From NCBI GenBank assembly GCA_964363225.1, contig CAYIIH010000002.1:28880-92879 (forward strand): a stretch of DNA of 64,000 bases, given 5' to 3'. Source of the stretch: an uncultured Verrucomicrobiota bacterium. GTDB taxonomy: Bacteria > Verrucomicrobiota > Verrucomicrobiia > Limisphaerales > CAYIIH01. Of this stretch, positions 17,775 to 49,748 are shown piece after piece. Positions within the stretch are counted from its first letter, which is position 1. The number at the start of each line of letters is the position of its first letter. A program made the position numbers and the translations under genes. The notes beneath the pieces are model-generated. The model did no database searches, was not told where the DNA came from, and saw only the letters and a program-made list of their open reading frames with translations.

Positions 17775-19946
17775 CTAATAGGGCAAGGGAAATCTTGCGG
17801 TTAATTCGTGAACACGTTCGCGCACCTTGTGCGCGGCGTCAAGGCTTTTAATGTCGAGCAGCACTTCGCTGATCATGTCGGCGATGGCCGCCATTTCCGT
17901 TTCCCGAATGCCGCGGGTGGTCACGGCGGGCGTCCCCAGCCGAATGCCGCTGGCTTGGAAGGGGGAACGTGTCTCAAAGGGGATGGTATTCTTGTTGACC
18001 GTGAGGCCGGCCTCATCCAGGGCCGCCTGGCATTCCTTGCCGGTCAACCCTTTGGCGCCCACGTCCACCAGCATCAAATGGTTATCCGTTCCGCCGCTGA
18101 CCAGCCGGTAACCGTTGCGTTTCAGCCCGGCGGCCAGCGCTTTGGCATTGCTGACAATCTGGCGTTGGTACTGCCTGAAATCGGGCTGCAACGCCTCGTG
18201 GAAGCAGACGGCCTTGGCGGCAATGACATGCATGAGCGGCCCGCCTTGAATGCCGGGGAAAACCTGCGAATCAATTTCCCGGGCATACTTCTCCGGGCAA
18301 AGAATCAGGCCGCCCCGCGGCCCCCGCAAGGTCTTGTGCGTGGTGGTGGTGACAAAATCGGCATGGGGGATGGGGCTGGGATGCTCGCCGGCCACCACCA
18401 AACCCGCGATATGCGCAATGTCCGCCAGCAGGTAGGCGCCCGCTTCGCGCGCGATCTCTCCCATGCGGGCGAAATCGATGATCCGCGGATAGGCGCTGGC
18501 CCCGACCGTGATCATCCTTGGCTGGTGCTCGCGCGTCAGCCTGGCCAACTGGTCGTAGTCGATCTGTTCGTCTTCCTTGCGCACGCCATAATGGATCACT
18601 TCGAAGAAACGGCCGGAAAAATTGGCTTTGTTGCCATGCGTCAAATGCCCGCCATGACTCAAATCCATCGTCAGAATCCTGTCCCCGGGCTTGAGGAAGG
18701 CAAAATAGACGGCCATGTTCGCGCCGCTGCCTGAATGAGGCTGAACATTGGCATGCTCCGCGCCAAACAGCTTTTTGGCCCGGTCGATCGCCCATTGCTC
18801 CGCCGTATCGACGTTCTCGCAGCCGCCATACCAGCGCTTGCGCGGATAGCCTTCGGCATATTTGTTGGTGAGCACCGACCCTTGAGCTTCCATCACGGCC
18901 AGGCTGGTAAAATTCTCGCTCGCAATCAGCTCGATATTCTCTTGCTGGCGCTGCCGTTCCAATTGAATGGTCTCGGCAATCTCCGGGTCCGCCTTCCAGA
19001 GGTGCCATCCATAAGTTGCGGGAGGAACTTCCATCTTTTGCACGCGCCGTTGGTGGCGTCCGCCCTCAAAATGGGCCTGCAGGAAGGCCTCCAGAATCTT
19101 CTTGGCTTGATCAGGAGAGGCCGTTTTTCCGCCCAGGCACAGGATATTGGCGTCATTGTGCTGCCGGGCCAGCGTGGCCATCTGTTCATCAAAAGCCAGC
19201 GCGGCGCGCACGCCGGGAATCTTGTTGGCGGCCATGCACATGCCCACCCCGGTGGCGCAAATCAAAAGGCCAAACTGGCTTTTTTGACTGGCCACGCTTT
19301 GGGCCACGGCCTGGGCGAAATCCGGGTAATCGGCGGACTCGCTGGCATGGGTGCCGAAATCGGTCACGGCCAGGCCCAACTTCTGCAAGTGCTCCTTGAG
19401 CTGTTCCTTGAGTTCATAGCCCGCGTGGTCCGCGCCTATCGCCCAACCCGTCTTTTTCGATGCGTCGGGACCGGTCAGCGGAACGCCGGAGGTTTGTTCG
19501 ATGAATTTCAACATCGCGGCAATTCCTTGTTCGATTTGATCGCGGCAATTCAGGTAGGTTTCATACGAACCGCCAATGGGGTCGGGAATGTCCTTTTCAA
19601 AAGCATCCAGCGTCTCGTCAAACTCCCGCAGCAAAAACGTCTTCTCGGCGGCCAGCGGGTAGAGCAAGGTGATGGCATCGATGTGCCCGTGCGTCATGCC
19701 AAAAATGTAGTCCGCCTGTTGCACCAATTCCGCCGTCAGCATGCGGCTGCGCTGGCGCGAAATGTCAATGCCCAAATCCTCCAAAACCTGCACCGCATGC
19801 CCGCTGGGCGGCTGGCCATCAATCGCGCCGACTCCTGCCGAAAAGATCTGGTACTCTCCCCGGCCCTGCACGGTGTGCCGAAACAGCCCCTCCGCCATGG
19901 GGCTCCGGCAAACGTTCCCCGTGCAAACGAAAAGGATGGTCTTCAT
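17775..19946 (-). CDS. glyA: tri-domain fusion: low-MW protein phosphatase + ribose-5-phosphate isomerase B + serine hydroxymethyltransferase
   Basis: Start moved to ATG 19946 ([20 protein letters not shown] = CX5R(S) LMW-PTP loop; DPIGG). RpiB follows ([38 protein letters not shown]). SHMT comes last ([21 protein letters not shown]). There is one continuous frame with no stops. Confidence 0.85.
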
Positions 19947-20001
19947 GCCGGCGTTAATGGTTTCAAGTTGGGGCGCGCTCGGAGAATCGTCAACGGCGAA
20001 A

Positions 20002-21075
20002 TCAGAGCGAACGGAGTTGCTGCGCCATGGCCAGGCCCTTGAGGAAATCAATGCTGCGCGCCAGGACCGGGTCTCGGATGACCGGCTTCGTTTCGGCATC
20101 GCGATTCTTCGCGTCCGCGTCCGTTTCGATCCCTTCCCGATGTCTCCGGACCAATTCGGCTTCGTTGAGGCCCCGGCGAGCGAACGGATTGGTCGCAACG
20201 CCGGATAGGGCGTTGGTCCCGCCCGCCACGGACACGAGGGCGGGCACCGCGGCGAGGAGCTTGAATGCATCCTGGAAATACGCCCTTTCCTCCTCCAGGC
20301 TCACGGCCACCGCAATGTCCGGGGTGAGGCCGGCTGCGGTCAACGCCGGGCCCTCCGGCAATTGCACCCGGCTCCGGGCAATCCGCAGACGCTGGCCGTT
20401 GCTCAAGTTGAACTCCTGAAAAATGTGCGCCTCACCGGCGGTCGGGCTTCCGATCAGCAGGCCGATGCCGGCCTGGCGCAAAACGGCGGCCAGGGCCTCC
20501 GCCGCGCCCGAAGTCTGGCGGTTGACCAGAATCGCGACCGGCACTTTCAAGGCATTGGTCTTGACGGTGGAATGCTCGGTTTTATCACCCCATTTCAGCA
20601 GCGGTTGCTCGTGGGCTAAAAAGCGGTCCGCCACTTGGGCTGCGGCCGAATAATCATCGCCTCCGGCAAAGCGCAGATCGAGCACCAGACCGGCCAGTTT
20701 GTTCGTGGACTTGAGGCGCTGGAAAGAGTCCCTGACGGCTTCCGCCAAGCCGGATTCGACTCGAGCCACGCGCAGATAGGCCACCAAATTCTCATACACG
20801 TCGCTCTTGCCGATCAAAGGCCCCTCCGCGGGGACGGTGGAAAGACCGTTCGTGACCAAAACAACCTGCGAACCAAGCTGGGCCAGCAATCCTCGCGTGG
20901 CGGCCCGGTTCAACTCAGCCTCGCTCATGCCGGCCAAGTTCGAGCGGATTAAGCCGAAGACCTCCTGAAACTGCGGCGCCGGCTCTTCTTTGTCGGCTTG
21001 CGCCCTGATTAAACTCATTGAGCCCGCAATCCACGCGGCGCCCAGGGCGGTCATGATCCATTTCTGCAAGTTCAT
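20002..21075 (-). CDS. S41 (C-terminal processing peptidase)-like secreted protein
   Basis: ATG at 21075 ([18 protein letters not shown]... signal). [13 protein letters not shown] and [20 protein letters not shown]...[10 protein letters not shown] resemble the S41 core. The usual Ser/Lys positions look substituted by eye. Confidence 0.6.
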
Positions 21076-33647: not shown

Positions 33648-36184
33648 GCTTCATTCATCAGGCGCGCCAGGGCATTCCACCAGAGATCATGCAACTCGTT
33701 CAAGTCCCAACTCAACTCGCGCCGGGCGGCTTGGATGATGAGAGCTGAGCCGCCGACGGTTCCCAGCCGCGCCGCCTGGATGCCTGCGTCCCTCGAACAG
33801 GCCAGCGCTTCCTCGGCGTGGGCTGGGGCTACTGAGATAACGATGCGTCCCTGGGCTTCGCCAAAAAGCAAGGTATCCAAACGGGCCGAAGGCCACGGTG
33901 ACAGATCAATTTGCGCGCCGACAAGTCCGGGAGTATCACGGGCGATCTGCCGGGAAATGCAGCTCTCGGCCAGCGCCACCGCCAGTCCCCCTTCGCTGCA
34001 ATCATGGGCGCTTTTCACCAACAGGGCCTGAATCAGAGCGCGCAGCGCATCATGCACCTTCTTTTCCTCGGCCAAATCGCAGCGGGGCGGTGTGCCCGTT
34101 TTCAAGCCGTGAATGCGCTGCAAATAAGCCGAGCCGCCCAGGCCCAAGAGCGGGTCCTTCGCGTCCAGAACGCCGCCGAGCATGAAGATGACGTCGCCTT
34201 CGTCTTTGAACCATTGGGTGGTGATGTGTTCGGCGCAGCCGATCAGGCCCACCATGGCTACGGTGGGCGTCGGATCAATGGGACCGTTCGGGTTCTGGTT
34301 GTAAAGGCTGACATTGCCGCCGGTCACCGGAGCGTCAAAGGCGCGGCACGCTTCGGCCAGACCTTCCACGGATTTCCGGAGTTGATAAAAAATCTCCGGG
34401 TTGTGGGGATTGCCGAAATTGAGGTTGTCCGTGATGCCGAGCGGGACGGCGCCCGCACAGGCCAGATTGCGCGCCGCTTCGGCGACGGCGATTTTGCCGC
34501 CTTCGTACGGATCGAGATAGACGTAAGCAGCGTTGCCATCGACGGTCAGAGCGATGAATTTCTCGATGGGAAGGTGTTCCGCCGCGCCCCTGGCTTGTCT
34601 CGCATCAACTGATTCATCCAGGGACACGGTGGAACGCGTCCCTCCCGGCATGGTCGGCAGCGAGTCCTCTTTGATGCGAAGGACGGCGGCGTCAGAGCCG
34701 GGGCAAACCACGGAGCTGTCGCGGACCATGTGATCGTATTGGCGATAGACCCAGTTCTTGGAAGCGATGCTGGGCCAACTGAGCAAGCCTTTCAAATCGC
34801 TGACCGGATCGTTGGTGTCGGTGATTTGGCTCAAGGAAAACGCTCGCACGGCTTTTAAGTAAGCCGGCTCGCGTCCTTCCCGCTCGTAAACGGGCGCTTC
34901 GTCGGCCAGCTTCCTGGCCGGTATGTCGGCCACGATTTGGCCGTGGTTTTTCACCACCATCCGGCCCGTGCCGGTGACAAATCCAATCTCCGCCCAGGGC
35001 AGGTCCCACTTGTCAAAAATCGTTTGCACCTCGGCTTCGCGCCCGCGCTGCACGATGATCAGCATCCGTTCCTGGGACTCGCTGAGCATGATTTCGTAAG
35101 GGGTCATGTTGGGGGCGCGCTGGGGCACTTTGCTCAGTTCAATTTCAATGCCGGTGCCGGCACGGGCGGCGGTTTCGCAGGTGGAACAGGTCAAGCCCGC
35201 CGCGCCCATGTCTTGAATGCCGGCCACGGCGCCGGTGGCCAGCAATTCCAGGCAGGCCTCCAGGACAAGCTTCTCCATGAACGGATCGCCGACCTGGACG
35301 GCGCCGCGTTGTTGCTCGGCCGATTCTTCGGTGAGGTCTTGGGAGGCAAAAGCCGCGCCGGCCAAGCCATCACGTCCTGTGGCGGGGCCGACGTAGAAAA
35401 CAGGATTGCCAAGGCCTTGGGCGGCGCCGCGGGCGATCTGCTCATGGCGCAACACTCCCAGGCAAAAGGCATTGACCAAAGGATTCCCCTCGTACGATTT
35501 GTCAAAGTAAACCTCGCCGGCAATGGTCGGGATGCCAAAGCAATTGCCGTAATGGGCGATGCCGGAGACGACGCCGCTGAAAAGGCGGCGGTTGTTGGTG
35601 ACGGGGGACTGGTGATTGGTGATTGGTGACTGGGGATTGGCGGCTTGAGGTTGAGGAGCAAGTGTGCCCTCAGGAGCCGTTGCGGCGTCGCCACCCTGGG
35701 AAGGAGCCGACGTAGGGAAGCTCGGGTCATTTCGGATTGCGGATTGCGGATTGCGGATGGCGGGGGCGTCGTCGGTGATTGGCCCAAAGCGCAGCGAGTT
35801 GATGGCGCAGATGGGGCGCGCGCCCATGGTGAAGATATCGCGAATGATGCCGCCGACGCCGGTTGCTGCGCCTTGAAACGGTTCCACGGCACTGGGGTGA
35901 TTGTGCGATTCCATTTTGAAGGCGATGGCCAGCCCGTCGCCGATGTCGATGATCCCGGCGTTTTCTTCACCTGCGCCCACCAGAATGCTCGGCGACTTGG
36001 TGGGGAACAATTTCAAGAGCGGCCGGGTGTTCTTATAGGAACAATGTTCGCTCCACATCACCGAGAAGATGCCCAGCTCAGTATAGGTCGGCTCGCGTCC
36101 GAGAATGTTCTTGAGGCGGTCGTATTCGTCCGGGGTCAGGTTGTGCTTTTGGACGAGGTCGGGGGTGATGGCGGGTTCGGTCAT
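33644..36184 (-). CDS. purL: phosphoribosylformylglycinamidine synthase subunit PurL
   Basis: Start moved to ATG 36184 ([21 protein letters not shown]...). [12 protein letters not shown] and [11 protein letters not shown] are present. It carries a low-complexity insert of about 60 aa (see 35595..35775). Confidence 0.95.
35595..35775. repeat. heptamer-repeat-rich insert inside purL
   Basis: ggtgatt ggtgatt ggtgact ggggatt lies at 35611-35638, and ggattgc ggattgc ggattgc at 35734-35754. They flank a unique spacer. The minus-strand translation is [22 protein letters not shown]...[17 protein letters not shown]. Confidence 0.85.
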
Positions 36185-36189
36185 TGGAT

Positions 36190-36278
36190 TCCTTTGCCTT
36201 GCTGTGATGGAAATGGTCCGAGAAAGCCACCGCCAGCCAGACATTAGCGTCCGCGAGTTTAATCCCAGAGGCTGGCAT
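36190..36278 (-). pseudogene. truncated PIN-toxin (VapC) stub
   Basis: ATG 36278 overlaps the antitoxin 3' end by 20 nt. The first ~30 codons ([30 protein letters not shown]) match the VapC N-terminus (LxDxNVxLAL...H.HH). Homology then ends, and the purL ATG (36184) lies inside the remaining frame. Confidence 0.55.
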
Positions 36279-36492
36279 CCAATTCCTCGGGCGTGGGGTT
36301 TATTATGTGGGTTCCGTCGCCGCGGATGAGCGGGACTTGGATCCGTTGGCGGACACGCTTGGCTCCAGAAGTCTGGCCGGCCACCGGTTGCAGGATCGTC
36401 AGCAAGCCGCGGCCCGATTCCGGCATTTTGTCCGGCTCCTTCGGCACCACCTTGCCGTGGTCAATCTCCACTTCCAAAGTCAAATAGCTCAT
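36259..36492 (-). CDS. putative antitoxin (orphaned)
   Basis: 77-aa ORF ([34 protein letters not shown]...) immediately upstream of the VapC stub and overlapping it. Confidence 0.5.
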
Positions 36493-39320: not shown

Positions 39321-39342
39321 GGCCGGGCGAAGGCTTCAAACG
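39321..39342 (+). repeat. 22-bp direct repeat, copy 1
   Basis: ggccgggcgaaggcttcaaacg, identical to 39764-39785. Confidence 0.9.
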
Positions 39343-39465
39343 GCTTTGGCGGCCGTTCATGCGGATTGATGATTTAGTCCGAAAGAGAATGGACGCCTTA
39401 TTCGAAGTATCCGCCGATGATCGCGCAGTTGACTAACAGCCAAAAAGCATGAAAATCACGGCGTT

Positions 39466-39702
39466 ATGTCAACGTCAGCCTTCAACGAAATCGAAAGCCA
39501 GTTTGCGGGATTGTCGCCAGAAGCTCAATTGAACCTATTGGAACGTCTCGTGCATCACGTCCGCGTGGGCTTGACCGGCAGTCACGGCGTTTGGGAAGCC
39601 GACCTCTCTGCGATGGCCGCCGATCCGGAAATGCAAAGAGAACTCAGGCGCATCAACGCGGAGTTCAGCGCCGCTGAAGCCGACGGGCTGGGGAGAGACT
39701 GA
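39466..39702 (+). CDS. putative antitoxin of a MazEF-like pair
   Basis: 78-aa helical ORF. Its TGA shares a base with the ATG of the MazF stub (TGATG at 39700-39704). Confidence 0.5.
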   Translation: MSTSAFNEIESQFAGLSPEAQLNLLERLVHHVRVGLTGSHGVWEADLSAMAADPEMQRELRRINAEFSAAEADGLGRD

Positions 39703-39806
39703 TGGCTGTCCAGCGCGGCGACATTTACCTGGTCAAACTGAATCCGGTGAAAGGACGAGAGCAGGCCGGGCGAAGGCTTCAAACGCCCTTGACTTCCGCT
39801 CGTTAA
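39702..39806 (+). pseudogene. truncated MazF/PemK-family toxin stub (34 codons)
   Basis: MAVQRGDIYLVKLNPVKGREQAGRR matches the MazF N-terminus (GDIYxVxLxPxxGxEQxGxR). Homology stops exactly where direct-repeat copy 2 begins, and a stop follows at 39804-39806. Confidence 0.6.
39764..39785 (+). repeat. 22-bp direct repeat, copy 2 (at MazF truncation point)
   Basis: ggccgggcgaaggcttcaaacg, identical to 39321-39342. Confidence 0.9.
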
Positions 39807-40084
39807 GATAAACCCAGCGGTGAAGGCTAACGTGAAAGAATATTGGGAGGGCAAGGCTCCTGACGAGCCTTGATTCAAGCACGAATGAACGCCGATGATC
39901 ACGAATCCAGCCGTAGCAGTCGGCGTAAGAAGGCTCTGATTCAAAGGGCTAAAAGCCCGAAAAGCAACAGCCCAAAGCAAGCGAGGCGAAGCGAGCGCTG
40001 CCCGGAGCAAGCCATTCCGGGAATTTAAGTGGCCTCCCAGACGGTGAAATGTAGTGGTTGCAAAGTCTCGGCCAATCATTTGAA

Positions 40085-41410
40085 ATGTGGGTGATGCCAT
40101 TTGACGTCTCGGTAATCGACCAAATCGCTAACCTGTATCACGCTGATGACCGACCCTGGGTTGTAGGTTTTAGCGGCGGTAAAGATTCGACTGCACTGCT
40201 CCAGCTTGTATTCCACGCGTTGACCAAAATCCCGTCAGACGCGCGCAAAAAGCAGGTTCACGTTGTGAGCAACGACACGCTGGTTGAAATCCCACAGGTC
40301 GCTCAGATGGTGCTTGAGACTTTGGTGAAAATCGAAAAGGGGGCGAAGCGTCGAGGCTTGCCAATGGTCGTTGCTCAGACGAGACCGGAGCTGGAGGATT
40401 CGTTCTTCGTCAACATTATCGGGCGGGGATACCCATCGCCCACCAGCCGATTTCGCTGGTGCACTGAGCGCATGAAGATCGACTCGACGACGCGCTACAT
40501 CACCAAGTTGGTCGAGACGCGCGGCGAGGTCATCATTTTGCTCGGCGCGCGCAAAGCTGAGAGCAACACTCGCGCTCAAACCATGGAGAGCCATAAAATC
40601 GAAGGCTCGATCTTGCGGCGCCACTCGACACTTCCCCGCTCCTACGTGTACACCCCGATCGAGGATTGGACGACGCAAGAAGTTTGGGCCTATTTGATTG
40701 GCGTGCCCTCACCTTGGGGCGGAGACAATCGGGCTTTGTTCCACCTGTATAAACAAGCGGACGGTGGAGAGTGTCCGTTGGTCATCGACAAATCCACTCC
40801 GAGTTGCGGCAACTCCCGTTTCGGCTGTTGGACTTGCACGGTCATTGAGAATGACAAAGCGGTGGAGGGATTCATTGAATCAGGCGACGAACATCTCGAG
40901 CCGCTGCTTGAGTTCAGGAATTTTTTGAAGGAAGCACGTTCGCGGCGCGACTGGCGGGAGCGAGTCCGAAAAAATGGCCAGTTAAAGAATCAAGACGGCG
41001 AAGAAGTGTGGGGCCCGTTCACTCTCGAAGCACGGAAAGCAATTTTGCGGCGGCTGTTGGAGACGGAGAAGAAGGCCGGCTTTCAGCTAATCTCTATCGA
41101 TGAGCTTTTGCTGATTCAACGGTTTTGGAAAAAGGGTGGTCGTTCGCTCACAGGCCCGACCGCCGACATTGATTTCTCAGTGGCGAAAATCCTGAGAGAA
41201 ACACGAGGAGAGACAGCTATGAGTGGTTACCTTGATTTGCTGGAAGGCGGGGTTGACCCGCTGCTGAAGACAGTGTGTGAGCAATACGACTTGCCGCCTG
41301 AATTAATTGAACGGCTCAAAGCGGAAGAGGAGGCTGTTGCCCATTTGCAGCGCCGCGACGGAATCTTTCAGCGCATTGACGAGATACTGGATAGCGTACA
41401 GGCGAAGTAA
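40085..41410 (+). CDS. dndC: DndC-like PP-loop ATP pyrophosphatase / PAPS-reductase-fold protein (DNA phosphorothioation type)
   Basis: PWVVGFSGGKDST (SGGKDS at 40172-40189), RGYPSPTSRFRWCTERMKI, and the Cys cluster CPLVIDKSTPSCGNSRFGCWTC (40772-40837). The start is uncertain (TTG 40058, ATG 40085 or ATG 40094). Confidence 0.8.
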   Translation: MWVMPFDVSVIDQIANLYHADDRPWVVGFSGGKDSTALLQLVFHALTKIPSDARKKQVHVVSNDTLVEIPQVAQMVLETLVKIEKGAKRRGLPMVVAQTRPELEDSFFVNIIGRGYPSPTSRFRWCTERMKIDSTTRYITKLVETRGEVIILLGARKAESNTRAQTMESHKIEGSILRRHSTLPRSYVYTPIEDWTTQEVWAYLIGVPSPWGGDNRALFHLYKQADGGECPLVIDKSTPSCGNSRFGCWTCTVIENDKAVEGFIESGDEHLEPLLEFRNFLKEARSRRDWRERVRKNGQLKNQDGEEVWGPFTLEARKAILRRLLETEKKAGFQLISIDELLLIQRFWKKGGRSLTGPTADIDFSVAKILRETRGETAMSGYLDLLEGGVDPLLKTVCEQYDLPPELIERLKAEEEAVAHLQRRDGIFQRIDEILDSVQAK

Positions 41411-41441: not shown

Positions 41442-43532
41442 ATGCTGATTGACTACCTTTCAGTTGAAAATTTTGGTCCGTTCAGCGGGCCTCACCGCTT
41501 GAACCTCGCACCGTCGCCAGACGGCAAGAAGTCGGTCGTTTTGATTGGCGCTGATAACGGAGCAGGGAAAACGACACTTCTCAGCGCGTTGAAGCTGTGC
41601 CTTTACGGCAAGCGAGCGGCGGATTTGTGGGACGGTGGCCAACAGGGTTATCGGCAATTCATTAGCGAGAAGTTCAATAACCGCGCATTCGACTCCGGCG
41701 AACGCCAAATGATTTTGGAGATTAGCCTCCGCGTTTGGGAACACAAGATTGAGCACACCCTCACGGTCAGACGTTCATTCCAAATCACTGACAGTCGCCT
41801 GTTCTTGACGGACAATCAGGAAACCCTTGAGGTGCTGCGAGACGGTAAACTTTGGGAGCGGCCTTTCCCTGATCTCCCCGAAGAAGACGACGCGAACCAA
41901 TACGATGACCTGCTGCGGCTTTTAATCCCGCCCAATCTTGCGCAGTTTTACTTTTTTGACGGTGAGCGCGTGCGTGAATTGTTCAAAAAGGCGAGCGCGG
42001 AGAACATCTCACAAGCCATCCGGGACTTGCTCGGTCTCTCGTTGCTCGAGCGGCTGGTGGACGATTTACGAGATTATCGGCGGACCACAATCCCTCGCCT
42101 TTACGGAAAGCACCACGACAAACAAGCCGCTCTGCTTCAGGCCCAAGGAGAAAGAGAGCAGCTTCGTGGTGAGATTCAGAGGTTGGAAGCCGAGGCCCGA
42201 GAAATTGAGGAAGACCTCTCCGAACTGGGCGCCAAGATTACCGAAAAGGAGAACGAGTTCCGCCGTCTTGGCGGATTGCAGCAGGTAGAGGTTGACCAAA
42301 TCAAAGAACAAGAGCAGCAGTGCAAGCTGGAGCATGAGCGTTTGACCGCGGAGCTTAAAGCAGCACTTGGTGATCAAATCTCAGTTTCGTTTCTGCTGCC
42401 GCTCAAGGCGGCGTGGGAAAAACGAATTGAGAAGGAAGCAGAGCGCCGTCGCTGGTTGACGAGACGCGAGGCGATTGAACCGTACATCAAGCGGCTGATT
42501 GACCGACTTGTTGGTCCCAACGCGCCCCAACCCGAGCCACCGTTGACGCGGGGACAGACTGCCTTCTTTACGCAGCGAATCGAGGAAGAGGTGAAGGGGC
42601 TCTGGCAGCCGCCGCCTGCCGAAGCCAGCGAAGATTTCTGGTTTGATTTGCGACAGGAAGAAATTGACCAAATCCGCAAACTGTTCGAGGAAGCGTTGCG
42701 CTTTTCATTGGGCCGTGTGCAGGAGTTGGTGGAAGCCAAAGAACGCGTGAGCGCGCAGCGGCGTCGCCTGCTGGAAAAACTGCAAAGCTTGGGCGACACA
42801 GAGGCGACTCAAGCCATTGCGAAGGAAATTGCAGAACGTCATCAGAAGAAAGGCTCGCTGAACCAGAAGCGATCGGACTTGGAAACGGAGATTGCACACC
42901 GGAATGACAAGCTGACCGAAATCGAGCGGCAAATCACGAACCTCGAGCAGGAATGCGGGAAATCGGCGAAGGGGAAGACCAAGAGCGACCTTTCCAACCG
43001 CGTTGAGCAAACCATCAAGGATTACCTTGAGCAGGCCAAAGTCCGGAAATCTGATGAAATCGAGCGCCACTTGAATCAGCTTTTCCTGGCGATGGCGAAC
43101 TGCCGTGACGAGATTCGAGAATTGAAGTTGAACCGGCAGACGTACGAGATCGAGATCGTGGACAAGGAAGGCCGAAGGCGGCCGATTGAAAACGGGCTTT
43201 CGGCGGGTCAAGCCCAGGTTCTGGCGATGGCGTTTGTCGGCGCGCTAGCCAAGGCAAGTGGCAGAATCCTGCCTCGCATCGTGGACACGCCGCTCGGACG
43301 CCTCGACGTGAATCATCGCCGTGACGTGACGCGCCACTTCTTCATCGAAAACGCTTCGCCTCAAACGATCCTTTTGAGCACGCCCACGGAGATCAACAAC
43401 TGCGTTTACGACAACCAGCCGCTGCGGCTTCTTGACGACTTGCGCCCTCATACCGCACGAGTCGCAACGCTCGTGAAGAAGGGGCCGGGTCAGACGTTGA
43501 TTGAGTCGCATTACTTCGGGAACAAGCTGTAG
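41442..43532 (+). CDS. dndD: DndD-like SMC/ABC-type ATPase
   Basis: Start moved to ATG 41442 (MLIDYLSVENFGPFSG...). Walker A GADNGAGKTT lies at 41547-41576. A long coiled-coil centre is present. The C-terminal block is LSAGQAQVLAMAF...IVDTPLGRLDVNHRRDV...ILLSTPTEI (DTPLGRLD at 43284-43307). Confidence 0.8.
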   Translation: MLIDYLSVENFGPFSGPHRLNLAPSPDGKKSVVLIGADNGAGKTTLLSALKLCLYGKRAADLWDGGQQGYRQFISEKFNNRAFDSGERQMILEISLRVWEHKIEHTLTVRRSFQITDSRLFLTDNQETLEVLRDGKLWERPFPDLPEEDDANQYDDLLRLLIPPNLAQFYFFDGERVRELFKKASAENISQAIRDLLGLSLLERLVDDLRDYRRTTIPRLYGKHHDKQAALLQAQGEREQLRGEIQRLEAEAREIEEDLSELGAKITEKENEFRRLGGLQQVEVDQIKEQEQQCKLEHERLTAELKAALGDQISVSFLLPLKAAWEKRIEKEAERRRWLTRREAIEPYIKRLIDRLVGPNAPQPEPPLTRGQTAFFTQRIEEEVKGLWQPPPAEASEDFWFDLRQEEIDQIRKLFEEALRFSLGRVQELVEAKERVSAQRRRLLEKLQSLGDTEATQAIAKEIAERHQKKGSLNQKRSDLETEIAHRNDKLTEIERQITNLEQECGKSAKGKTKSDLSNRVEQTIKDYLEQAKVRKSDEIERHLNQLFLAMANCRDEIRELKLNRQTYEIEIVDKEGRRRPIENGLSAGQAQVLAMAFVGALAKASGRILPRIVDTPLGRLDVNHRRDVTRHFFIENASPQTILLSTPTEINNCVYDNQPLRLLDDLRPHTARVATLVKKGPGQTLIESHYFGNKL

Positions 43533-43540
43533 GAGGCGAG

Positions 43541-45052
43541 ATGGCAAACTTACATCCTTCGAAGGAGACACACGAGTTCTTAGAGAACACACTGGCAAAA
43601 CGGACGGGTGTTCGGCGCAATGTGTGGGCGAGGATTGCGGCGTCTCGTTCTCTCACCTTGCCGAATCTGCCGCAGGAAATGGAGATTGACTCCGAAGGAC
43701 TTGAACTGAGGCGTGAGACTATCCTTGGCGACCAAGACGCTCTCTTCAAAGCGATCTTCACGCTCCGCTACGAGCGACCGCTATCGGACGATGAGTTCTT
43801 CCCAAAGCTCTTTAAGCTGCATCTGGAACGGGGAACGAAACTGCTGAAGCAGGACTGGGAATTGGCCGGGGGACGCGCGGAGGACTTCTACGCTAAGTTG
43901 GCGGAAAACCTTCCGAAAATGCACCTGCCGGAGAGCAGGTTGATCGAACATCGGGGTGTCCAGAAGCTACTCCGCTTGGAAGTAGGCAATGTTTTTGAGA
44001 CAAATGAGCCGTTGGTCTGGATGCTGAACAGTGCGAACAATGCCCATGCTGCCATTGTTGGCACAACCGGAAGCGGCAAAACTCATCTCGTAAAAGACTT
44101 GCTGGTTCAGGTCACTGAACAAACGCAGGGGAAGTTGCCATTTGTGTTTTTTGACTACGCCCGTGGTGACGTGGCGGGTGATGCCGACTTTGTAAAAGCA
44201 AGCAAAGCTCGCGTTGTCAGTTTGCCTGATACGCCTGTCCCACTCAATCCGTTTCCCGGCTGTCGAACGCCAATCGAAATCAACCAACAGGCTCATCACC
44301 TAGCCAAAATTTTCCGCGACGTTGCGCCACACATCGGAATCGTTCAGGAACAACGGCTGGTTGCCGCAGTCCAGCAGTGCTATCACGACAGCCAAGGCAA
44401 GCCACCAGACTTCTACGACCTCCGAACGGTTGTCGAAGCCACCGGCGACATGGATTCGTTAACAGGTGTGCTCGGAAAGCTCACCGACTTGAATCTGTTT
44501 CCGTCGCTGCATGTGGACCAAGCCCTCCAGACGCAAGACCTCTTAGCCAGTTCTTGGATAATTGACCTGCACAAGCTGCAAGATCTCCGCGAACTGGTTC
44601 TGTTCCTCGTCGTGGATACTCTCAAGAACTATTTCAGCCGGCTGCGCGACCAGTCCGTTGACGAGACGAGCGGGGCGAGGGAGTTACGTTGCCTCCTGGT
44701 CATTGACGAAGCACACAACTTTCTGCCAAAAGACAACGCGCAAGTTTTGGAAAAATGCTTGCGCGAGATGCGCGGCAAGGGCCTCGGCACCTGGCTGCTG
44801 TCACAGAACCCGCGTGACCTCGACCAAGACCATTACAACTACGCCACCGAGGTGAACTTCCACATGTGCCTCAAGGTTCTGGACGCTAAGCCGCAGATAC
44901 TCACGAATCTCTACGGCGTTCCTCCCACGGAAGCAAAAAACTGGGCGGTCCGACTCGCCACTTTTGAGCGTGAAGGGATTTGCCGAAATTCGGCTGTGCC
45001 AAAAGGTTTTTCGAAAATTGGTGTCCGGCAGTTTTGGCAGCGGAAGCATTGA
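43541..45052 (+). CDS. fusion of a DndE-like N-terminal domain with a HerA/FtsK-type (DUF87-like) P-loop ATPase
   Basis: AGGAGG at 43531-43536 lies 4 nt before the ATG. The N-terminus SKETHEFLENTLAKRTGVRRNVWARIAASRSL resembles DndE (SKEa..L..Lk.rTGi.pN..aRiA...S). Walker A is IVGTTGSGKTH (44060-44086), Walker B is LLVIDEAHNF (44693-44722), and LGTWLLSQNPRDLD is also present. Confidence 0.7.
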   Translation: MANLHPSKETHEFLENTLAKRTGVRRNVWARIAASRSLTLPNLPQEMEIDSEGLELRRETILGDQDALFKAIFTLRYERPLSDDEFFPKLFKLHLERGTKLLKQDWELAGGRAEDFYAKLAENLPKMHLPESRLIEHRGVQKLLRLEVGNVFETNEPLVWMLNSANNAHAAIVGTTGSGKTHLVKDLLVQVTEQTQGKLPFVFFDYARGDVAGDADFVKASKARVVSLPDTPVPLNPFPGCRTPIEINQQAHHLAKIFRDVAPHIGIVQEQRLVAAVQQCYHDSQGKPPDFYDLRTVVEATGDMDSLTGVLGKLTDLNLFPSLHVDQALQTQDLLASSWIIDLHKLQDLRELVLFLVVDTLKNYFSRLRDQSVDETSGARELRCLLVIDEAHNFLPKDNAQVLEKCLREMRGKGLGTWLLSQNPRDLDQDHYNYATEVNFHMCLKVLDAKPQILTNLYGVPPTEAKNWAVRLATFEREGICRNSAVPKGFSKIGVRQFWQRKH

Positions 45053-45263: not shown

Positions 45264-45638
45264 ATGAATACAGTTGCGGAAGAGCTGGCCACGCCGCTGG
45301 CCCCACCCAACCTGGAGCGCATCGTGCTGGCCCAGGTGGACCAGTGGTTGGGGCAATGTCACGCCTTCCGCCAGTGGTATCGTCAGAGTTTCCTTTTAAG
45401 GCGGCCCTCAAGGGAACAGGAGAAACTGGCGGACGAAATCCAGCCGTGGATGATCCGCATCACCCGTGCGCTGCTCTCGCAGATGTTGGATCCGGAGTTC
45501 CCGCATCGACACCTCGCCCGCTCGGTCGAAGCGACTCTCTGGCAATTGGAGGAGGATTGGGCAGGCCGGCACAATCCGATGACCGAAGCAGAAGCCGATA
45601 GCATCCTACACGCGAGTTTCCCGGAGCATGCATCCTGA
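45264..45638 (+). CDS. hypothetical protein (124 aa)
   Basis: ATG 45264 within ORF 44964..45638 (MNTVAEELATPLAPPNLERIVLAQVDQWLGQCHAF...). GC is back to the flank level. No family recognised. Confidence 0.4.
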   Translation: MNTVAEELATPLAPPNLERIVLAQVDQWLGQCHAFRQWYRQSFLLRRPSREQEKLADEIQPWMIRITRALLSQMLDPEFPHRHLARSVEATLWQLEEDWAGRHNPMTEAEADSILHASFPEHAS

Positions 45639-45852
45639 CCTGGAAGCGTTGATCCAGGCCTACGATGCGGCTTTGGAAGCCAGCCCAAAAGAGGCAGCGC
45701 GTCGCCGCGACGAATTCGAGCAGCGGCTTCAAGAAGTGCTGTCGCGTGCTCGCGGTGTCAGCGAGGAGTCCCTTCACAACGTCATCCGTCTGGCCCACCG
45801 CCGCTGGCTTGCCAAGCAAAGGAAGCCGCCTACGATGCCGCCAAAGACGTGA
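45628..45852 (+). CDS. hypothetical protein (74 aa)
   Basis: Overlaps the previous ORF by 11 nt. It is helical and Arg/Glu-rich (MHPDLEALIQAYDAALEASPKEAARRRDEFEQRL...). Confidence 0.35.
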   Translation: MHPDLEALIQAYDAALEASPKEAARRRDEFEQRLQEVLSRARGVSEESLHNVIRLAHRRWLAKQRKPPTMPPKT

Positions 45853-47690: not shown

Positions 47691-48098
47691 ATGAGAGTCT
47701 TCATAAGCTATGCGATGCCGGATGCTGAACTGGCGCGGAAGGTTGCCGATGGACTACGGCGTGAAGGGTTGAGCGTTTGGCTGGCCGACCAGGAGATATT
47801 ACCGGGAGACAACTGGGCGGAGAAAGTTTCGCAAGCGTTGAACGAATCGCAGGCGATGGTGGTGTTGATCACGTCCGAGACGTTCCGGTCCCGTGCCGTG
47901 ATGCGCGAGATCGAATTTGCCTTGGGCAACAAAGAATACCGTCAGCGCCTGATTCCTGTGGTCATCGAATCGGAACGGATACCGGATGAGACCATTCCGT
48001 GGATTCTGCGGCGATACCAGATGGTTCGTGTGCCGGAAGGAGGGCGGATCGCGGATTGTGTCAGCGAGATTAAGCGGGCCTTGCTTGTGACAGCCTGA
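47691..48098 (+). CDS. stand-alone TIR-domain protein (135 aa)
   Basis: RVFISYAMPDAELARKVADGLRREGLSVWLADQEILPGDNWAEKVSQALNESQAMVVLITSETFRSRAVMREIEFAL fits the bacterial TIR pattern (FISY..D, G..VW.D, G..W, vvvlS...S.w...E). No other domain is present. Confidence 0.7.
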   Translation: MRVFISYAMPDAELARKVADGLRREGLSVWLADQEILPGDNWAEKVSQALNESQAMVVLITSETFRSRAVMREIEFALGNKEYRQRLIPVVIESERIPDETIPWILRRYQMVRVPEGGRIADCVSEIKRALLVTA

Positions 48099-49124: not shown

Positions 49125-49748
49125 GTGATGAGGATCTCAGCGGCACTGCGAACAGCGTATAGGCCGGTCATGGCGTTGGTGCTCTCGCTTGCGGTTTGGC
49201 AGGGCTGGGCGGCGCAGCCGAAGCCTTTGGGCAAGCTGACCAATTGCCGGTATGTCACGGCGGATTACAATGATGGCGACAGTTTTCACGTGCGTTCCGA
49301 CCGCAGCGATTTCGTTCTTCGGCTTTACTTTGTGGACGCGCCTGAGACTACTCTGCGTGATGCGGTGCGGACGCAGGAGCAGCGTCAATATTTTGATGTG
49401 ACTTCCGATGAGACGATAGACGCCGGGTTGAAAGCGAAAGAGGCGGTGCATGACATGTTGCAGCAGCCCTTCGTGGTCTGGACGCGCCGGGCGACCGCCC
49501 CAGGCCGGAGCCAGTTGCCCCGCTATTACGGGTTGGTGGAGGTCAAAGGCACGAACCTGACCGAATGGTTGGTCAGCAAAGGCTTGGCGCGAGTCAAAGG
49601 CGTTCGCACCCAATTACCCGACGGCCAAAAGTCGAAAACGTACCTGGAAAAACTCCGCAAGCTGGAAAAGGAAGCCAAAGAAAAGCGAGCCGGGATTTGG
49701 GCGTTCTCGAAAACAAGCAACTCAGACAAAATCCCGCCAAAGAAATAA
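49125..49748 (+). CDS. staphylococcal-nuclease (thermonuclease, SNase) family protein
   Basis: Signal-like N-terminus. DGDSFHV...LRLYFVDAPET, YGLVEV...NLTEWLVSKGLARV, and EAKEKRAGIWA resemble the SNase fold motifs. Confidence 0.7.
   Translation: MMRISAALRTAYRPVMALVLSLAVWQGWAAQPKPLGKLTNCRYVTADYNDGDSFHVRSDRSDFVLRLYFVDAPETTLRDAVRTQEQRQYFDVTSDETIDAGLKAKEAVHDMLQQPFVVWTRRATAPGRSQLPRYYGLVEVKGTNLTEWLVSKGLARVKGVRTQLPDGQKSKTYLEKLRKLEKEAKEKRAGIWAFSKTSNSDKIPPKK

Follow-up and report, generated by a model that had tools for sequence, protein, structure and literature searches.

A probable DndEi protein, with DndE fused to a HerA/FtsK-type ATPase, in a compact dndC-dndD cassette of a groundwater Verrucomicrobiota bacterium

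We analysed a stretch of 64,000 nucleotides from an uncultured Verrucomicrobiota bacterium (contig CAYIIH010000002.1; in the following called the window), with a focus on a gene on its plus strand at 43541-45052. The gene encodes a protein of 503 amino acids in which a DndE domain is followed by a HerA/FtsK-type P-loop ATPase. Upstream on the same strand lie dndC (40058-41410), encoding a PP-loop/PAPS-reductase-type sulfurtransferase, and dndD (41442-43532), encoding an SMC-like ABC ATPase. We consider it highly probable that the gene is dndEi, the DndE subunit of a Dnd phosphorothioation module with a built-in HerA/FtsK-type motor ATPase, and that it closes a compact dndC-dndD-dndEi operon as the last gene.

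The window positions 43541-45052 form one open reading frame (ORF), which starts with ATG and has no internal stop codon. A Shine-Dalgarno sequence AGGAGG, read from the sequence at 43531-43536 (plus strand), overlaps the TAG stop codon of dndD (43530-43532) and ends 4 nt 5' of the ATG of dndEi. This placement indicates that dndD and dndEi are separate but tightly coupled cistrons. Gene calls on six contigs, which stem from different Hainich groundwater metagenome assemblies, give exactly this 503-residue product, so the frame does not result from a one-off sequencing error. A preliminary description of this DNA, made from the letters alone, had proposed a one-frame fusion of DndE with a P-loop NTPase. 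The uninterrupted ORF and the Pfam matches for both parts agree with that proposal, and neither a stop codon nor a frameshift separates two genes. All peptides quoted at that time were found in the translation, with SKETHEF...SRSLT at residues 7-39, LGDQDALFKAIFTLRY at residues 62-77 and LHLERGTKLL at residues 93-102.

The DndE domain comprises residues 1-122 (43541-43906, plus strand). The Pfam family DndE (PF08870) matches residues 7-107 with 59.8 bits against a cut-off of 25 (E=3.7e-16), and among the window ORFs scanned against Pfam it was reported for dndEi alone. The similarity of the first 125 or so residues to DndE profiles, on which the preliminary reading depended, is thus significant. 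A profile built from the N-terminal part of 21 family members matches DndE structures only, namely 7X4E (E=3.2e-18), 5WTU and 4LRV. An AlphaFold2 (AF2) model made for residues 1-126 has a confidence (pLDDT) of 94.4 and shows two strand-helix-helix units; the domain consists of two ribbon-helix-helix-like units and a C-terminal helix. When this model was compared with the PDB by Foldseek, significant matches were again restricted to DndE (7X4E, 4LRV and 5WTU, TM 0.57-0.78), with TM 0.72/0.78 for 7X4E and about 0.65/0.75 for 4LRV. The protein therefore shares fold and sequence family with canonical DndE (4LRV and 5WTU from E. coli B7A; 7X4E) over residues 1 to about 110, but here the domain is tethered to a motor domain of 360 residues. 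Both parts are connected by a linker of residues about 123-140 (43907-43960, plus strand). The full-length AF2 model has a pLDDT of 92.2, and only residues 127-131 fall below 50.

The ATPase domain extends over residues ~141-503 (43961-45049, plus strand), and this part matches the DUF87, HerA_C, TrwB and FtsK profiles. It also matches the last ~330 positions of the PADLOC profiles for DndH (E=3.4e-31). The best solved relative by sequence is the C-terminal domain of DptH/DndH (PDB 7ES4), which was found with the family profile (E=6.1e-58, profile positions 146-508) as well as with the single sequence (E=3.7e-14). The same structure is the top fold match in Foldseek (E=8.8e-23, target-normalised TM 0.85, rmsd 2.8 A). 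Further matches were obtained to HerA (4D2I, E=8e-12), VirB4 (4AG5, E=2.5e-11) and TrwB (1E9R, E=1e-9). These hexameric translocases share the P-loop core fold with the window protein (Foldseek E about 1e-11 to 1e-9), but their TM values are lower (0.45-0.53) and the N-terminal barrel of HerA is missing from the window protein.

In a family alignment of 46 sequences with 22-88% identity to the window protein, the residues K180 (Walker A), D205, Q269, F320, E390 and A391 (Walker B), R411 and Q422 are invariant. The Walker A motif GTTGSGKT is located at 44060-44083, with K180 at 44078-44080. The Walker B motif LLVIDE (D389, E390) is located at 44693-44710, and D389 is present in at least 90% of the 46 sequences. 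The arginine finger R411 (44771-44773) lies just 5' of the strand that ends in the sensor-1 glutamine Q422 (44804-44806) of the LLSQNP motif; in the model, the strand E415-421 precedes Q422. All four motifs are on the plus strand. An arginine finger upstream of the strand ending in the sensor-1 glutamine has been described as diagnostic of the HerA/FtsK clade (PMC10853773). Walker A and B, the arginine finger with the sensor-1 glutamine and the likeness in fold all place the domain in this clade. The assignment to the HerA/FtsK/VirB4 class was already made in the preliminary description from the Walker motifs and a third, LSQ-containing motif, which we located at 44783-44824 (LGTWLLSQNPRDLD) and which holds the clade-diagnostic glutamine. 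Two of its positions need to be corrected: the longer Walker A string IVGTTGSGKTH is present but spans 44054-44086, position 44060 being the first G of GTTGSGKT, and the longer Walker B string LLVIDEAHNFLP is present but ends at 44728 (44693-44728), not at 44722.

The dndC ORF is listed from a TTG codon at 40058, and the real start may be an in-frame ATG at 40085 or 40094. The product scores 462.5 bits against the NCBIfam model DndC (TIGR03183; cut-off 290.4) and matches the PADLOC DndC profile with E=1e-153. Its translation contains the SGGKDS PP-loop and a cysteine cluster. The real start of dndD is at 41442, which aligns with residue 1 of the DndD of a relative described below. DndD scores 340.5 bits against TIGR03185 (cut-off 245.85) and contains the Walker A motif GADNGAGKTT, the signature LSAGQ and the motif IVDTPLGRLD. 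The fusion gene is thus located in a dnd modification cluster, where it takes the place of a separate dndE. As a separate observation, residues 402-445 of DndC (41261-41392), in its C-terminal helix region, match the Pfam family Sp-DndD (PF20306, E=1.4e-8), described as a 'small protein found in certain Dnd systems'. The same annotation is found on the DndC of relatives.

Database searches showed that the fusion is widespread and that it is mostly encoded directly 3' of dndD. A word-indexed search found 35 proteins that reach down to 28% identity, and most of them have the same pair of Pfam domains. An exhaustive search of 1.84 billion representatives at 50% identity yielded 1005 matches with E<=1e-3, of which 319 had E<=1e-10. 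Both domains were present in 105 of the 120 full-length representatives from the top 150, and in 261 of 329 retrieved proteins, where DndE is always the first domain and the median length is 508 residues. A profile search with the family alignment was dominated by generic HerA proteins and revealed no new family members. In data with one genome per species, relatives were found in 219 genomes of many phyla, among them Acidobacteriota, Verrucomicrobiota, Bacteroidota, Planctomycetota, Pseudomonadota, Bacillota and Spirochaetota. The best genome match, with 64% identity, is a metagenome-assembled genome of the Verrucomicrobiia. This locus search was seeded with an alignment of 11 sequences, and we inspected the neighbourhoods of the best 80 of the 219 loci. 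In about 57 of these 80, dndD is located directly upstream of dndEi, and dndC is present in 19. Public databases name the family members 'DNA sulfur modification protein DndE', 'DndE family protein' or 'ATP-binding protein'.

The same data bear on the question whether a dndE and an ATPase gene could have been joined by a sequencing or assembly error. The only point that can be raised in favour of such an artefact is that canonical DndE is a free protein of ~110-130 residues, which was crystallised as a tetramer and binds nicked double-stranded DNA (PMC6435447). The identical ORF occurs on six independently assembled contigs, however, and hundreds of proteins across many phyla have the fusion in conserved form. 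In addition, the AF2 model is confident over both domains with a short linker in between. We regard the probability of an artefact as negligible, and the recurrence on six contigs together with the conserved fusion excludes it.

The preliminary description took this architecture to be undescribed. This is not the case, since the fusion is known as DndEi (PMC6435447, PMC7464106) and as a HerA/FtsK-DndE fusion (PMC10853773). The window gene belongs to the DndEi family as a so far uncharacterised member, encoded in a minimal dndCDEi cassette. According to a 2018 review (PMC6435447), DndEi was first noted in Bacteroidetes (Barbier 2013). The review also summarises work on Riemerella anatipestifer (Zheng et al. 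2016, J Biol Chem 291:1492), where the helicase/ATPase activity of the extra domain was required for phosphorothioation and the ATPase of DndEi was strongly stimulated by DNA with the modification motif GAAC/GTTC. The gene dndEi has also been reported in Prevotella and Bacteroides (PMC7464106), and DndEi was noted in Flavobacterium indicum and Kordia algicida (PMC6435447, PMC7464106). Rakesh, Aravind and Krishnan (2024, NAR 52:1005) described a HerA/FtsK clade-3 fused to DndE and adjoining DndD (PMC10853773). The same study reinterpreted DndE as a pair of ribbon-helix-helix domains in co-evolution with DndD, with which it would scan DNA as a pair.

Judged by its sequence, the window gene fits the published DndEi descriptions in every testable respect. 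Like the R. anatipestifer protein, it combines DndE and an extra ATPase/helicase domain in one polypeptide, lies in a dnd cluster and replaces the canonical dndE, whereas the host belongs to another phylum (Verrucomicrobiota, not Bacteroidota). With clade-3 it shares the arginine finger, the sensor-1 glutamine, the fusion to DndE, the adjacent DndD-type ABC ATPase and the kinship to the DndH C-terminal domain; no difference was found in this comparison, which was made against the published description rather than the clade dataset. Another protein with a similar name, DndI (PMC11662687), is different from DndEi.

Based on these data we propose the following function. The double ribbon-helix-helix module of DndE would hold a complex of DndC, DndD and DndEi on the DNA. 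The tethered motor, probably as a ring-shaped oligomer, may then use ATP to unwind or translocate the DNA locally. On the opened or moved DNA, the ABC ATPase DndD and the PP-loop ATPase DndC could exchange a non-bridging phosphate oxygen for sulfur, which would be supplied by an IscS-type enzyme encoded outside the window. The preliminary description had suggested that the motor aids the DndCD machinery or senses sites, and this guess is in broad terms consistent with the published work on DndEi.

Several observations weigh against the assignment as a DndEi that acts in phosphorothioation, or limit it. The NCBIfam equivalog model for DndE (TIGR03184) scores 50.4, below its cut-off of 71.85, which is expected for a fused and divergent version. 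The identity to members of the family from Bacteroidota is only about 30-35%. The homology to dndC-linked members from this phylum is clear: with L035 as query, a relative with 62% identity to the window protein was matched (E=1e-59). Neither the literature nor the search with the Bacteroidota query led to a named entry from Riemerella, Kordia or F. indicum, and membership in DndEi is suggested by architecture, context and family-wide homology rather than by an alignment with the R. anatipestifer protein. HerA/FtsK enzymes are usually translocases of double-stranded DNA, and the 'helicase' activity reported for DndEi may misdescribe its real action. It is furthermore disputed which subunit reads the modification motif, DndE (PMC10853773) or a 'specificity loop' of DndC (PMC12193691).

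The gene content of the window also weighs on this side. We found no DndB, DndFGH, Pbe, Ssp or other partner recognised by PADLOC in the 64 kb, nor was a gene for a cysteine desulfurase (dndA) found there. The activity of the cassette would accordingly rely on genes outside the window. According to the literature, a housekeeping cysteine desulfurase can replace DndA (PMC6435447). No restriction gene was found in the 64 kb, which leaves two options for the cassette: it acts as an orphan modification module, or together with a distantly encoded partner.

The missing restriction partner and the likeness to DndH lead to another explanation, in which the motor belongs to the defence side: DndEi would sense or translocate on unmodified or foreign DNA, and the cassette would be anti-phage by itself. 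The ATPase is of the same kind as the C-terminus of DndH, and the DndH/DptH C-terminal domain is its closest relative. Moreover, HerA/FtsK 'capture' has been proposed as a general anti-invader theme (PMC10853773). The context of the two ATPases differs. In DndH, the domain ends a restriction protein of ~1700 residues, where it is preceded by an inactive helicase lobe, target-recognition domains, an inactive methylase and a restriction endonuclease (PMC10853773), whereas in the window a domain with the same motif set (residues 141-503) is attached to DndE in a modification module. A Pfam scan and the full-length model revealed no nuclease or other effector domain in the window protein, and at nearly all loci DndEi occupies the position of dndE after dndD. 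The genetics published for DndEi, as summarised in the review, place its helicase function in the modification step (PMC6435447). A role on the defence side therefore appears improbable to us. We also rejected the window protein as a DndH of a DndFGH system, as it has 503 residues, matches only the last ~330 positions of DndH, and DndF and DndG were not found in the window.

A bolder reading of the same features is that the dndCDEi of this verrucomicrobial clade is a self-sufficient three-gene system, in which a DndH-type motor on DndE drives phosphorothioation and in addition gives some protection or DNA surveillance without DndFGH, Pbe, Ssp or an HNH partner. We consider this to be rather far-fetched. 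If it were true, the ATPase shared by DndEi and DndH would represent a common ancestral scanning engine for the modification and the restriction side.

A different question is whether the cassette is still functional, or whether a larger dnd island is decaying here and, after the loss of dndB, dndA and its restriction genes, has left a remnant without function. A larger gene set is present in a relative with 59% identity (L081, 4350-14203), which encodes a 721-aa protein, DndC (65% identical to that of the window), DndD, DndEi, a 175-aa unknown protein, DndB and a Mrr_cat nuclease. The 721-aa protein has only weak methyltransferase and HNH-repeat matches. This island is mobile, with a relaxase, a primase, methylases and an iSirtuin/nSTAND protein. 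We found no remnant of its 721-aa protein, 175-aa protein, DndB or Mrr genes in the window. Two loci with a dndEi of 78% identity (L083, 3463-5262; L084, 1135-2934) count likewise against a working module, as dndEi is intact there but dndC is gone and dndD is mostly gone. Upstream of dndEi, these loci keep a 91-aa C-terminal remnant of DndD (78% identity), which abuts an unrelated PhoU/ROK/Ppx block. Such cassettes evidently decay. In the window, on the other hand, dndC, dndD and dndEi are all full length with intact catalytic motifs, and the identical sequence was recovered in several samples. Moreover, known systems can do without dndA and dndB or replace them (PMC6435447, PMC10853773). Thus, it is unlikely that the cassette is a mere remnant, and we favour an intact dndCDEi modification module. 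Its minimal composition agrees with the literature, according to which modification by Dnd is often uncoupled from DndFGH.

The cassette has probably been acquired horizontally, as its base composition suggests. Its GC content is 0.547, compared with 0.58-0.59 in flanking housekeeping genes, and the GC content at third codon positions (GC3) is 0.63-0.66, compared with 0.72-0.76. The remainder of the window is ordinary chromosome, with secA, rho, glyA, purD/F/L/M/Q/S and a gene for a TatD-like hydrolase upstream and sugar-metabolism genes downstream. Rfam and tRNA scans of the window gave no matches; with no tRNA found in the window, there is no tRNA-linked integration site. A repeat search around the cassette yielded no convincing flanking att-like repeats, and promoter and terminator scans remained at background level. 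Upstream of dndC, a direct repeat of 38 nt was observed (39321-39358 and 39764-39801, 84% identical, 443 nt apart); the pair flanks an ORF of 78 amino acids (39466-39702) without family match. Two small ORFs downstream of dndEi, at 45264-45638 and 45628-45852, were rejected as parts of the system, as they have no family matches and are not conserved beside dndEi elsewhere.

The assignment matters mainly for annotation. The gene is properly named dndEi, for a DndE with a fused HerA/FtsK-type ATPase, and the labels 'DndE family protein' and 'ATP-binding protein' should be avoided. The locus adds a verrucomicrobial case from groundwater, with a minimal dndC-dndD-dndEi and no dndA, dndB or restriction partner nearby. 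The same order dndC-dndD-dndEi was found on the megaplasmid of Methylorubrum extorquens AM1 (L085, 5545-10404; NC_012811.1, about 1,013.9-1,018.7 kb), where the PLSDB gene table contains no features for this stretch. M. extorquens AM1 is a cultured and tractable host in which DndEi could be tested.

Besides the dndC-linked cassettes, we observed that the pair of DndD and DndEi occurs in operons with a methylase and without DndC, at no fewer than 16 loci (among them L056, 1044-12998, and L050, L076, L075, L043 and L063). The order in these operons is a 908-aa N6 methyltransferase (HSDR_N_2 and N6_Mtase), a type I specificity-like subunit, a RAMA protein, DndD and a 508-aa DndEi. They show weak matches to PADLOC mad2, mad5 and mad8, and often a protein of ~1060-1130 residues without PADLOC match follows. 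These MADS-like loci share the pair of DndD and the DndE-ATPase with the window. In place of DndC, which the window has, they encode the type I-like N6 methyltransferase together with the specificity subunit and the RAMA protein, all of which are absent from the window. The MADS preprint gives no domain description of mad8. It appears that the DndD-DndEi pair has a methylation-linked use in these operons.

Some further features of the window were noted. At 47691-48098 (plus strand), 2.6 kb downstream of dndEi and beyond two sugar-metabolism genes, lies a gene for a stand-alone 135-aa TIR-domain protein (Pfam TIR_2, E=2.6e-25), with weaker matches to ThsB_TIR and to the CAP12/Pycsar TIR. The protein may be a solitary TIR of the defence type, but no partner was seen. 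A staphylococcal-nuclease homologue (SNase, E=4.2e-10) is encoded at 49125-49748 (plus strand) between two ThuA-like genes. On the minus strand, an ORF of 831 amino acids (17775-20270) carries low-molecular-weight phosphatase, RpiB and serine hydroxymethyltransferase domains in one frame. The three domains may be truly fused, or neighbouring genes may run on with no stop codon between them. Between purL and purQ, also on the minus strand, overlapping small ORFs of 77 and 66 amino acids are located at 36078-36492; the 77-aa ORF has no Pfam match. From their translations, they look like a pair of an antitoxin and a truncated PIN-like toxin.

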